Shown here: piece by piece, positions 62,501 through 64,000 of the stretch
How positions within the stretch are numbered: the stretch's first letter is position 1
Layout of the letters: each line of letters opens with the position of its first letter
NCBI GenBank assembly: GCA_041288095.1
Contig: JBGGMJ010000099.1
Location: forward strand, 1-64,000
Direction of reading: 5' to 3'
Length of the DNA: 64,000 bases
Source of the DNA: Myxococcota bacterium
GTDB taxonomy: Bacteria > Myxococcota > XYA12-FULL-58-9 > JALHOP01
Program-made: the position numbers

Positions 62501-64000
62501 GACGTCTTCGAGCACGCCTGTCAGATGGGGATGGAAGGCATCATCGCCAAACGGCGCGACTCACCGTACCTCGGCAAGCGCACGGGCTCGTGGCTCAAGA
62601 TCAAGTGCCATCTGCGGCAAGAGCTGGTGGTTGGCGGTTATAGCGAGCCGGCCGGCACGCGTGTCGGTTTTGGCGCACTGCTGCTCGGGCACTACGACGA
62701 CGGCAAGCTGATCTACGCCGGGCGCACCGGCACGGGCTTCGACGAGAGGACGCTCGAGGCGCTGTACAAGCGTATGAAGAAGCTCGAGCGTGACGAGCCG
62801 GCGTTCGTGAACCCGCCAACGGGAGCGGAGGCTCGCGGCGTGCACTGGCTCACGCCGAGTCTCGTCGCCGAGGTGCAGTTCTCGGAGTGGACGCGGGAAG
62901 GGACGATCCGGCAGTCGGTGTTTCAGGGGCTGCGGGAGGATAAGCCGGCGGACGAGGTGAAGAGGGAGAGGGCGGAAGTGCGGCAGGGGAGTAAAAGGGC
63001 GAAGAACGAGGGCCGATCGCCGAAAGCCGAAAGCCGATCTGCGAAGGCCGATAGCCGATCACCGAAAGCCGATGGCCGAAAGCCGATGGCCGACGACCGA
63101 ATACCGAAGGCTTCGCGCAAAGACGAGAAGCCCGTCACGGTGGCGGGGATTCGCGTGACGCATCCCTCGCGCATCGTCTACCCCGAGCTCGACATCACCA
63201 AGCGCCAGCTCGTCGAATACTACGACGCCGTGGCGGACCGCATGCTTCCGTACGTCGCCCACCGTCCGCTCTCGCTGCTGCGCTGCCCCGACGGCGCCGG
63301 CTCCGCCTGCTTCTTCCAGAAGCACCTCGGCGCCCACAAGAACGAGCCGGGCCTTCACGGTATCGAGGTGAAGGACAAAGAGAACAAAGGTCTCTATGTG
63401 CTCATCAAGGATCGCGTCGGCTTGCTCATGCTGGTGCAGCTCGGCGCCATGGAGTTTCACCCCTGGGCATCACGCGACGACGAGCTCGAGCACCCCGAAT
63501 TCATGGTCTTCGATCTCGATCCCGGTGAAGGTGTCGTCTGGGATCGCATCCTCGAAGCCGCGCTGGTGTTGCGCGCCCGCCTCGAAGAGGTCGGTCTCGA
63601 CAGCTATGTCCGCACGAGCGGAGGCAAGGGCCTGCACGTTTGTGTGCCGCTCGCTCGCAAGAACGACTGGGACGAGGTGAAGGCCTTCAGCCAGGCGGTC
63701 ACCCTCGACCTCGAGCGCCGTGAGCCGCGCAAGTACATCTCGGTGATGACCAAGCGCGACCGCACCGGCAAGATCTTCGTCGACTACTTGCGCAACGGCC
63801 GGGGCGCGACCGCCGTCGCGACCTACAGCACGCGCGCCCGCGCTAGCGCGGGCATCGCGATGCCGCTCGACTGGCGCGAGCTCGACAAGATCACCGGCGG
63901 CGACATGTTCACCTTGCCGGAGATCGCGGCGCGCTTACGCAAGCCCGACCCGTGGGCCGATTTCTTCGACACCAAGCAGGCCATCACCAAGGCGATGGTG

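Follow-up and report, generated by a model that had tools for sequence, protein, structure and literature searches.

According to PMC4679880 and PMC4692102, the heptanucleotide class of prokaryotic long simple-sequence repeats (LSSR; Mrazek, Guo and Shah 2007) is typical of large, GC-rich genomes of non-pathogens; it is sporadic across the phylogeny and under-represented in coding DNA, with slippage proposed as its source. PMC4692102 also covers the GGGAATC and GGGGA(C/T)T heptamers of Xanthomonas and Nostoc, intergenic G-tract repeats that form quadruplexes with four units preferred and are depleted on the coding strand of ORFs, and cites the STRR heptamers of Calothrix beside them. The TAACTGA direct repeats (PMC4679880), known from marine Beggiatoaceae, cyanobacteria and Bacteroidetes, comprise 2–6 exact copies that usually sit immediately before a start codon. 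Their forward orientation contains stop codons, there is no degenerate spacer, and protein-linker use is not among the features reported for them.

The arrays described here belong to a family with the unit CCGANNN in a Myxococcota bacterium. Two of them lie in the window, the 64,000-nucleotide stretch of DNA that was analyzed. The family shares with the Xanthomonas and Nostoc heptamers (PMC4692102) a dispersed, genus-specific distribution without chromosome-strand bias, and the roughly 100–200 loci per genome of those repeats may be counted as a further likeness. With TAACTGA (PMC4679880) it has in common that a particular heptamer forms repeats and its near variants do not, that its occurrence among lineages is patchy and has no known means of spread, and that a few copies are found inside ORFs. 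As in LSSRs, tandem 7-base units extend far beyond chance length, and the family also matches them in genome type, sporadic distribution, proposed slippage source and scarcity in coding DNA. It differs from them in having only four fixed positions in the unit of seven, with the other three free to vary, in that close to half of its loci lie in genes and are read as protein despite the non-triplet unit, and in that the non-coding arrays are tied to a PF05635 cassette. Unlike the Xanthomonas and Nostoc repeats, CCGA arrays lack G-tracts and favor the coding strand inside genes. Quadruplexes call for a G-tract of at least three per unit, with four units preferred; CCGANNN and its complement hold at most GG.

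The neuO gene of E. coli K1, a surface-modification gene, carries near its 5' end an intragenic heptanucleotide repeat that switches it on or off by unit number. CCGA arrays resemble that repeat in being 7-base units inside coding regions, translated when in frame, but they show in-frame variants only and occupy mid-gene linkers of housekeeping genes. In heptamer-armed PF05635 cassettes a small four-helix-bundle gene is likewise bounded by arrays of 6–7-base units; the flanking arrays in this genus differ in being direct rather than mirror-image arms. We propose that the array in LigD is probably a solo translated member of a lineage-specific CCGA+3 repeat family that turns over at the DNA level and is filtered at the protein level within genes.

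The CCGANNN family and its arrays in LigD and DnaG

The LigD array occupies 63012..63111 on the plus strand, as defined by TRF together with reading by eye, and comprises 14 units in register, 13 of them with CCGA; the genome-wide survey's note had placed it at 63013..63110, where it is indeed present. TRF reports period 7 with 11.7 copies over 63012-63093, and also periods 14 and 21 that reach 63111. The single decayed unit, read by eye, is TGCGAAG. The host gene, identified by its ORF and Pfam domains, begins at 61334 on the plus strand and runs off the window at 64000, ending at contig position 64018 by our own gene call. Its domains are ordered phosphoesterase, ligase and primase-polymerase, with LigD_N at aa 35-140, DNA_ligase_A_M at 253-424, DNA_ligase_A_C at 444-537 and LigD_Prim-Pol at 622-874. 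The array is in frame between the end of DNA_ligase_A_C (aa 537) and the start of LigD_Prim-Pol (aa 622), with the translation GRSPKAESRSAKADSRSPKADGRKPMADDRIPKA at about aa 560-593. The open frame, the Pfam envelopes and alignment gaps suggest that it is translated as a floppy linker. It is a solo array, with no PF05635 cassette nearby.

A second array of the CCGANNN family, partly decayed, lies at 11903..12007 on the plus strand; about 10 of its 15 in-register units have CCGA. Its host is the DnaG primase gene (10582..12465, plus strand; an ORF with Pfam Zn_ribbon_DnaG, DNAG_N, Toprim and DnaB_bind), and its translation, ...PPDGRGPRADGRSPTADGREPTGDSREPMTDGPLPTE, falls in the primase linker after DnaB_bind (aa 367-417).

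The draft genome (G000) holds 46 arrays of at least four units, ranging from 4 to 20 units, and these counts and longest lengths are lower bounds in an assembly of 212 contigs with several arrays at contig ends. About 0.05 arrays are expected by chance, calculated from 95,661 CCGA in 11.7 Mb (both strands); the excess is of the kind seen in LSSR and VNTR loci. The survey's figure of 46, against 0-3 for 11 of 12 other cores, was obtained again on recounting, like every other survey figure that was recalculated, and a period-7 scan widened to all 256 four-base cores gave 46 for CCGA, 22 for GCCG, 16 for CGAT, 7 for CCCC and at most 3 for each remaining core. The GCCG and CGAT counts are CCGA arrays offset by one base. 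TRF finds 52 period-7 arrays with at least four copies in the genome, arranged head to tail like the 5-11-base units of LSSR and VNTR loci.

The four genomes of the genus contain 134, 429, 710 and 544 pattern windows, and the two of a second genus, g7, contain 41 and 539. The remaining 55 of 61 genomes have 0-1, except G043 (8) and G049 (6), whose reversed-pattern controls exceed the pattern counts (24 and 34). The confinement to this genus and one other that had been noted among 41 genomes also stands among 61. Array loci lie in genes in 19 of 41 cases, fewer than half; our own gene calls put the coding share of the genome at about 92%. This gene context comes partly from a crude codon-model gene caller, and its firm part is the Pfam-supported subset. 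In g7, 2 of 48 sampled arrays (one kinase gene) fall within a long sense ORF, and linker use is therefore largely a trait of this genus.

The core and the spacer decay at different rates. CCGA is present in 31 of the 35 period-7 arrays that TRF returned without regard to core. Mismatches to each array's own majority base, counted over 257 units, amount to 18, 9, 1 and 5 in the core columns and 82, 112 and 54 in the spacer columns, or 33 in 1028 cells versus 248 in 771. The 17 non-genic arrays give 2, 4, 1 and 2 core mismatches versus 30, 47 and 32 in the spacer, and the 14 genic arrays show the same asymmetry. The even decay across the unit that is expected of simple repeat copies was seen in neither group, and slippage alone does not explain the fixed core because it predicts equal decay in all seven columns. 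Non-coding arrays occur in either orientation, often with identical units. Arginine within arrays is always encoded by CGA, a codon that accounts for 6.2% of Arg codons genome-wide (811,693 training codons), as had been noted before. The CCGANNN family is a DNA-level repeat, tolerated and shaped when translated.

Arrays inside genes and their turnover

Four arrays in G000 have Pfam domains on either side in one open frame, in LigD, in AroK-AroB, between S4 and PseudoU_synth_2, and between PP-binding and Aminotran_3. A further four share the frame of a domain that precedes them, namely TPR, two protein kinases and HlyD. As judged from open frames and flanking domains, these eight arrays must be translated, and they bear out the survey's claim of arrays translated as linkers in intact genes. 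Sense arrays encode the heptad P-x-A-D/E-x-R-x, which is rich in proline and charge. Every one of the 15 arrays in Pfam-bearing ORFs of G000 (14 of 14 in the earlier count) and of the 16 sense arrays in G002 falls outside domain envelopes. The accompanying caution that arrays near N-termini may precede the true start was right, and it applies to RecG, UDG, FliO, DUF2339, Smr, M4 peptidase and EutC.

Arrays in genes are strongly biased toward the sense orientation, which was found for 13 of 15 arrays in Pfam-supported ORFs of G000 and for 8 of the 8 that are surely translated. The 16 sense arrays of G002 are spread across 12 domain-bearing genes, and only two antisense readings occur there, an array upstream of an M4 peptidase and a 4HBT_2 frame over an array that is itself sense in the polyprenyl synthase gene. 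The dnaX arrays of G002 (aa 391-438) directly follow domain III (aa 237-374), at the gamma/tau junction, the site of gamma production in other bacteria. Where an array lies between two genes of the same direction, its orientation is unbiased (5 with the genes, 6 opposite), and a transcription-coupled origin of the sense bias was rejected on this split.

In-gene arrays also carry a 21/42-base higher-order structure, a periodicity of three and six units, with codon-phase filtering. Comparison of their spacers between units gives 2/115 identical at lag 1, but at lag 3 the figure is 12/71 and at lag 6 it is 6/24; non-genic arrays give 58/159 at lag 1 and a level profile over the remaining lags. 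The corresponding G002 identities are 0.41-0.42 for lag 6 and 0.11-0.16 for lag 3. The preference for six over three units is not something that frame maintenance predicts. T is found at unit position 5 in 28 of 47 units in the GAT (Asp) phase versus 16 of 45 and 15 of 45 in the other phases, and TAG, TAA and TGA spacers occupy the GAT phase, where they are harmless.

Spacer sorting by codon phase and the strong sense bias would also be expected if the heptad itself were selected as a binding or spacing module, the regularity of the DNA being a by-product of recent in-frame duplication. The residue composition (A 15.6%, R 14.7%, P 13.8%, D 11%, S 9.8%) is that of a regular polyampholyte, and the heptad peptide outlasts the DNA core in the L002 LigD and G001 AroK-AroB linkers. 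However, the core and the period recur in non-coding arrays of either orientation, many of which have a stop in each sense frame (CCGATAG, for example), and CCG, NCC and CGA keep their third positions constant contrary to codon preference (CGA 6.2% versus CGC 63%). The core, moreover, does not differ among the three codon phases, a uniformity that selection on the protein could not produce. We regard selection on the heptad as the source of the arrays as highly improbable.

Turnover of the arrays is evident between species. As the survey's note had stated for LigD and AroK-AroB, unit number differs while the ORF stays open, and eight further pairs likewise differ in frame. The LigD linker holds 13 CCGA in the window, 17 (16 in one run) in L001, 9 in L003 and 1 in L002, close to the 13, 16, 9 and 0 units given earlier; the frame is open in all four genomes and the spacer order is unrelated. 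The L002 array is a fossil in which the SKADKRA peptide is kept and the codons have drifted to GCT, GAC and CGC. No CCGA run was found in the LigD linkers of three outgroups, again as noted before; the outgroup linker is ordinary, Lys/Ala/Pro-rich and non-repeat. The AroK-AroB linker has about 10, 4, 9 and 15 intact units in four genomes, all in open ORFs of 615-629 aa, matching the previous 10, 9, 15 and about 4. Among eight orthologous array pairs (77-89% identical), G002 has more units than G000 in 8/8, a result that is partly biased because loci were chosen for at least five units in G002.

A 42-base deletion of six units, at 63020..63061 on the plus strand, distinguishes one public metagenome contig (run X1, record 1) and removes AESRSAKADSRSPK. 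The deletion is in frame and lies between 11-base direct repeats, such that 11 letters fit either side; the flanks, the shorter of 87 letters, contain no other differing letters. The allele is known from one contig of low depth (3.8) in an assembly of short reads. It came from a search of Logan contigs in which cover was partial for some runs and many pieces were cross-matches from other arrays. No out-of-frame allele was found among the orthologs examined or in the Logan contigs, where a rare variant might escape notice. As in LSSR and VNTR loci, close relatives differ in copy number, here in LigD, in the eight pairs and in the 42-base allele.

This instability, in a 7-base unit that is not a multiple of three and lies inside the LigD and DnaG ORFs, is what a contingency (phase-variation) locus would display. 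A change of one unit would shift the frame and switch LigD between forms with and without the polymerase domain; modelled alleles with one unit fewer or one more stop at aa 605 and aa 575, respectively, before that domain. The arrays that adjoin the end of domain III in G002 dnaX could likewise switch between tau-like and gamma-like products. Yet all orthologs examined are in frame (LigD and AroK-AroB in four genomes each, and the eight further pairs), the sole variant allele differs by 42 bases with the frame kept, and the higher-order periods are three and six units. The hosts, moreover, are housekeeping genes (LigD, DnaG, AroK-AroB, RecG, UDG, DnaX, kinases) rather than surface genes, and the arrays occupy mid-gene linkers or C-terminal tails rather than 5' ends. 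Phase variation is accordingly very unlikely in our judgment.

The PF05635 cassette beside non-coding arrays

Many non-coding arrays abut a multicopy cassette whose small gene encodes PF05635, the 23S rRNA intervening-sequence protein, an Avd-like four-helix bundle (4HB). This link is new in this analysis, and a literature search found no paper tying the family to tandem repeats. A piece of the cassette lies within 50 bases of 9 of the 22 non-genic arrays and within 300 bases of 0/19 in-gene arrays. The PF05635 ORF sits between arrays at those 9 of 22, as it does not at LigD, and the other 13 of 22 are without a cassette gene. The cassette is present in about 10 copies, and several of these are internally deleted.

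Three of the four genomes of the genus and both genomes of g7 contain PF05635, which attains the family cut-off in only 2 of 16 other genomes of the order. No match was found in G003, which is 84% complete and has arrays, and PF05635 is present in G019 and G005, where CCGA arrays are absent. At least 11 of the 16 PF05635 matches in G014 have an array no more than 300 bases away, and period-6 or period-7 arrays were found within 300 bases at 19 of 20 PF05635 loci from 10 other genomes. The array-bounded four-helix-bundle gene was found in G000, G001 and G014. The cassette copies on C57, C96, C9 and C210 have CCGA on the same strand on both sides, that is, direct arrays; inverted arms, which would allow hairpin pairing, were seen in G043 loci and not in this genus. 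A tree of the 4HB protein, built after removal of four short or divergent rows, places both array-bearing genera, G019 and G051 in a single clade (support 93/96), unresolved inside. The two genera are not resolved as sisters in it, which bears on recent transfer of the cassette between them. Rfam returned no RNA family above gathering score on cassette flanks. Its sole match was a sub-threshold mir-942, on both strands of a palindrome in L235.

Two readings place the cassette at the center. The first holds that phased CCGA boxes are DNA or RNA docking sites for a lineage-specific factor, putatively the PF05635 protein, with in-gene copies acting, for example, in ribosome pausing at domain boundaries through a rare CGA every seventh codon. 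The invariant core and free spacer of coding and non-coding arrays alike are consistent with this, as are the adjoining cassettes and their co-occurrence with arrays across genomes, the clustering of rare CGA codons exactly at domain boundaries, and the consistently greater length of orthologous arrays in one species, which suggests control in trans. But no cassette lies near any of the 19 in-gene arrays, LigD in L002 tolerates loss of its array, Rfam yields no known RNA family on the flanks, and the co-occurrence comes from only two independent lineages within the order. We consider docking decidedly unlikely. The second reading is that the cassette moves by recombination between direct arrays, the arrays being landing pads and the solo ones excision remnants, like solo LTRs. 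Direct arrays do bound cassettes on both sides, several of the roughly 10 copies are internally deleted, and arrays without the gene exist (13/22 non-genic); however, no orthologous site was found empty in one genome and filled in another, no in-gene array contains a cassette remnant, and in-gene arrays common to species 77-89% identical must be old and evolving in place. This has next to no probability in our estimate.

Origin, filtering and significance of the arrays

Three other origins of the family were considered and rejected. Fill-in of staggered breaks by NHEJ (Ku/LigD) does not fit the distribution of Ku (PF02735), which occurs in 4/4 genomes of the genus, in 0/2 of g7 and in many array-free genomes. 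Loss of mismatch repair does not fit the presence of MutS_I (PF01624) in all six array-bearing genomes, and synthesis by a reverse transcriptase, a DGR or a telomerase-like enzyme does not fit the distribution of RVT_1 (PF00078), found in 0/4 and 0/2 of them.

In the explanation that we favor, a DNA-level repeat filtered within genes, the family would arise and turn over by slipped-strand or short-homology misalignment between units. The pattern within genes suggests a protein-level filter that would let only sense-strand arrays persist and would limit their survival to disordered linkers or tails outside folded domains. Changes of three or, more often, six units would be kept, leaving the downstream domain in frame, and the variable triplet would be sorted by codon phase, with stop triplets and T-initial codons placed where they are harmless. 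The LigD array would then separate the ligase domain from the polymerase domain as a flexible spacer of variable length, in place of the Lys/Ala/Pro-rich linker of the outgroup type, and would not act as an on/off switch.

The fixed core and drifting spacer suggest a sequence-specific factor, for which the PF05635 protein is the only candidate found. This candidate may be a trans-acting partner of bacterial heptanucleotide repeats, recognizing the core, setting array length and seeding arrays that are recruited as linkers, a proposal we make tentatively and think rather unlikely. The protein would recognize the (C)CGA core once per seven bases, and its binding would stabilize misaligned intermediates, fixing the core and setting array length genome-wide. 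The host may then recruit seeded arrays as ready-made, length-adjustable polyampholyte linkers of multidomain proteins, among them replication and repair enzymes that are essential.

In many large bacterial genomes no class of long simple repeat is commoner than heptanucleotide repeats, and their sequence specificity, patchy distribution and function are so far unexplained. This genus offers a clean natural experiment, in which the same repeat occurs as a raw microsatellite in non-coding DNA and, in more than a dozen genes, has probably been turned by selection into a charged, proline-rich linker with its DNA signature intact. The fixed four-base core, the candidate partner protein and the species-wide shift in array length provide handles on why such cores are conserved. 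The family illustrates how repeats with a non-triplet unit can give rise to linkers between domains and alter their length, DnaG, DnaX and LigD included.

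CCGA arrays in the window and their turnover

The CCGA array at 63012-63111 (+), a tandem run of CCGANNN heptamers, consists of 14 seven-base units in one register. The CCGA core starts 13 of the 14 units; the remaining unit has decayed to TGCGAAG. Periods of 7, 14 and 21 were detected across the array with TRF. It is wholly enclosed by the LigD open frame, which runs on the same strand from 61334 to beyond 64000 and in which Pfam placed LigD_N (aa 35-140), DNA_ligase_A_M (aa 253-424), DNA_ligase_A_C (aa 444-537) and LigD_Prim-Pol (aa 622-874). Residues 560-593 are the array's translation, GRSPKAESRSAKADSRSPKADGRKPMADDRIPKA, and the array is the linker joining the ligase domain to the polymerase domain. 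Another array, partly decayed, lies at about 11903-12007 within the DnaG primase gene (10582-12465), 3' of the DnaB_bind subdomain, and is translated as ...PRADGRSPTADGREPTGDSREPMTD... The nearest relatives of LigD (61334-64000) outside its own genus were about 48-50% identical along the whole protein and came from Burkholderiales-type genomes, not from other Myxococcota (loci L004-L013), which would fit acquisition of the gene by horizontal transfer.

Array length differs among the four genomes of the genus (G000, the genome under study, and G001 to G003). In the LigD linker there are 13 CCGA units in the window and 17, 9 and 1 at the other three LigD loci (L001, L003 and L002, respectively). 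Spacer order is unrelated among the four loci, while the protein on either side is 82-90% identical and all ORFs are open. The genome-wide survey's note had claimed differing unit numbers in open frames, which stands; its counts were 13, 16, 9 and 0, and 16 of the 17 L001 units form one run. The L002 linker is the fossil of an array: it keeps a heptad-like peptide, SKADKRA, in drifted codons (GCT, GAC, CGC). In outgroup LigD proteins, at about 49% identity, the linker is of an ordinary Lys/Ala/Pro-rich kind with no repeat run. The AroK-AroB linker behaves in the same way across the four genomes, as the note had proposed; its 5' part is older and decayed and its 3' part younger and perfect. The AroK-AroB fusion of g7, another genus of the same order, has no array.

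Eight further orthologous pairs from G000 and G002 (77-89% identical) carried arrays at matching positions, with 13/17, 11/16, 10/17, 5/14, 5/11, 7/10, 9/19 and 20/30 units (G000/G002), in a comparison biased by a choice of loci that favoured long G002 arrays. The longer G002 arrays agree with that genome's fivefold higher genome-wide window count and, given this biased choice, offer a hint that array length is controlled in trans.

Turnover was also seen in a population. One contig from a soil-metagenome run carried a deletion allele with flawless flanks in which 63019 is joined to 63062. Six units were lost between 11-base direct repeats, in frame, removing 14 residues. Modelled one-unit changes led to LigD stops at aa 605 or aa 575, ahead of the polymerase domain; no one-unit LigD alleles were seen.

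Abundance, lineage range and unit structure

The G000 draft (5.85 Mb, 66% GC) contains 46 CCGANNN arrays of at least 4 perfect units; about 0.05 would be expected by chance, as calculated from CCGA frequency. A period-7 scan of all 256 cores returned CCGA 46, GCCG 22, CGAT 16, CCCC 7 and at most 3 for each other core, the GCCG and CGAT counts being CCGA arrays offset by one base. Core-agnostic TRF period-7 arrays (at least 4 copies, no indels) had a CCGA consensus in 31 of 35 cases. Seven arrays genome-wide form another, small period-7 family, which has a CCCC/GGGG core. One of its members, at C110:118-164, is a perfect run of about 6.7 (CCGGGGG) units directly 3' of a CCGATAG array. Among 61 genomes scanned with a five-core pattern, the genus gave 134, 429, 710 and 544 windows, the two g7 genomes 41 and 539, and the remainder 0-1 except for G043 and G049. 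In these two, a reversed-pattern control exceeded the CCGA pattern count, so their heptamers differ from the CCGA type. The excess of CCGA (46 arrays compared to at most 3 for unrelated cores) and the restriction to the genus and one other genus of the order, which the note had based on 41 genomes, were both borne out.

The core is fixed and the spacer free. Scored against the majority base of the array they belong to, 257 units showed 18, 9, 1 and 5 mismatches in the core columns C, C, G and A as compared to 82, 112 and 54 in the spacer columns. Within the spacer, T fills unit position 5 in 65% of units, base usage at position 6 is uniform, and position 7 is mostly G (77%) or A (20%). The core is identical in g7, where position 7 is often A, T or C. 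Decayed units have mostly lost the first C and kept CGA. Arrays outside genes show core mismatches of 2, 4, 1 and 2 against 30, 47 and 32 in the spacer (141 units), and in-gene arrays share this asymmetry, so protein selection is not its cause. Plain slippage with random decay does not predict such a pattern.

CCGA arrays are members of the bacterial heptanucleotide long simple-sequence repeat (LSSR) class, as that class is outlined in PMC4679880 and PMC4692102. Compared to the repeats as outlined there, however, they pair a fixed core with a degenerate spacer, are widely translated on the sense strand as protein linkers, including in essential genes, and flank PF05635 cassettes as direct repeats. 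LSSR-type even decay along the unit is absent, mismatches instead piling up in the spacer columns, and the arrays did not come out as phase-variation loci in tests for such loci.

Placement and translation of arrays in genes

Gene context was taken from our own codon-model gene calls (4908 genes, 92% of the genome). After merging to 41 G000 loci, 17 were in genes in sense orientation, 2 in genes in antisense, 14 intergenic and 8 at gene edges. With 19 of 41 loci in genes of a 92% coding genome, arrays are strongly depleted in coding DNA, though many are genic. Pfam found domains in 15 of 105 array-spanning G000 ORFs; the array lay outside the domain envelopes in all 15 and was in sense orientation in 13. 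The note had cautioned that arrays near N-termini may lie upstream of the true start. This probably holds for the two antisense cases, M4 peptidase and EutC, in which the array is near the N-terminus, but not for eight others. Four ORFs have domains on both sides of the array (LigD, AroK-AroB, S4/PseudoU_synth_2 and PP-binding/Aminotran_3) and four have the array 3' of a domain (TPR, two kinases and HlyD). For these eight arrays, all of them sense, translation is unavoidable.

An independent sample of 30 G002 loci yielded 16 sense arrays in 12 domain-bearing genes, all outside domains. Hosts included a kinase, two pseudouridine synthases, UDG, polyprenyl synthase, DnaX, LigD, an RNase H-like protein, Smr, DUF2339 and FliO. 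Two antisense readings were found: an array upstream of the M4 peptidase ortholog, and the first residues of a 4HBT_2 frame over an array that is sense in the polyprenyl synthase gene. Together, the G000 and G002 data uphold the note's reading of the arrays as linkers in intact genes. Between same-direction genes, 5 arrays followed the gene orientation and 6 opposed it; the sense bias is thus peculiar to copies that are translated. In G002 dnaX (L163:334-2085, +), three adjacent arrays (aa 391-438) lie immediately C-terminal to domain III of the clamp-loader subunit, the site at which other bacteria make the short gamma form by frameshifting. The G000 dnaX is interrupted by a contig end after aa 191.

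In-gene sense arrays are not built of identical units: spacers were identical in 2/115 comparisons at lag 1, 12/71 at lag 3 and 6/24 at lag 6 (pooled random 0.046). Non-genic arrays are often blocks of one unit, such as CCGATTG x18, with 58/159 at lag 1 and about equal values at lags 3 and 6 (pooled random 0.091). In G002, identity was 0.41-0.44 at lags 6 and 12 as compared to 0.11-0.16 at lag 3, a contrast that in-gene arrays share with heterogeneous arrays outside gene calls. Higher-order repeats of 6 units (42 bases) are far commoner than those of 3 in long heterogeneous arrays (G002 loci L158, L166, L169, L179, L182 and L186; C69:13656-13802 in G000). The LigD deletion also spans 6 units, where frame maintenance alone would permit 3.

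Translation yields heptads of the form P-x-A-D/E-x-R-x, in which Ala, Arg, Pro, Asp and Ser are abundant. Unit position 5 is T in 28/47 units in the GAT (Asp) phase as compared to 16/45 and 15/45 in the ATN and TNN phases, and TAG, TAA and TGA spacers are placed in the harmless GAT phase. Array Arg is always CGA, reproducing the note's contrast with genome-wide usage (CGA 6.2%); CGC makes up 63% of Arg codons genome-wide.

The PF05635 cassette and a proposed two-layer model

The flanks of non-genic G000 arrays are non-random. About 10 loci (on C9, C12, C57, C64, C96, C107, C110, C141, C160 and C210) share a cassette, for example at C57:14224-14898, C96:2435-2974, C110:1-650, C9:52037-52494 and C210:19710-20054. 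Its order is array, 144-base structured leader, 107-codon ORF, 100-base tail with terminator-like hairpins, and another array in the same (direct) orientation as the first. A PF05635 protein (23S_rRNA_IVP, four-helix-bundle, Avd-like) is encoded by the ORF, which C57, C96 and C53 carry intact; elsewhere it is truncated, and several copies have internal deletions within it. A cassette piece lay within 50 bases of 9/22 non-genic arrays and within 300 bases of 0/19 in-gene arrays. A short hairpin (AAATGG...CCATTT stem) occurs directly 5' of some arrays (C12:410-480, C107:1613-1645, C160) and also on C4, C36, C105, C188 and C211, with three tandem copies on C12.

PF05635 matches numbered 6 in G000, 2 in G001, 4 in G002, none in G003 (84% complete), and 3 and 16 in g7; among 16 other genomes of the order only G019 and G005 exceeded the family cut-off. 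In the g7 genome G014, at least 11 of 16 matches were within 300 bases of an array. Arrays there alternate with a conserved element of about 70 bases (L192, L195, L197, L200, L203, L206) that ends TGAGTG[TG] immediately 5' of the first CCGA unit. Two versions of its central hairpin with compensatory stem changes suggest a functional RNA or DNA structure. Rfam recognised no family in this element or in the cassette flanks. In ten other genomes, 19/20 PF05635 loci had, no more than 300 bases away, an array of period 6 or 7, with one unit per genome that differs between genomes. A literature search found no published link of the family to tandem repeats; one paper notes PF05635 genes in CRISPR-cas loci. 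In a tree of the four-helix-bundle protein the genus, g7, G019 and G051 fell in one clade (93/96), internally unresolved and apart from G023 copies. Their repeat units have TCG in common, a weak hint that protein and repeat unit are matched.

Other mechanisms were considered. End joining is not required, since g7 lacks Ku; all array-bearing genomes have MutS, against loss of mismatch repair; and no reverse transcriptase was found in any of the six array-bearing genomes. In G000 the Ku gene is divided between two contig ends (C156:18782-19051 and C115:12-365) that overlap with a few differences, which points to strain heterogeneity or a break in the assembly rather than to an array.

A two-layer model fits the evidence. 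An orientation-neutral process at the DNA level, presumably slippage, would make and resize the CCGA arrays and maintain an intact core. It would somehow be tied to the PF05635 cassette, whose protein is a candidate for the factor that holds the core. Selection on translated copies would then admit only sense arrays in disordered segments, frame-keeping changes and phase-appropriate spacers, and such a protein-level filter would account for the sense bias. The LigD array would be a domesticated copy serving as a flexible spacer of variable length.
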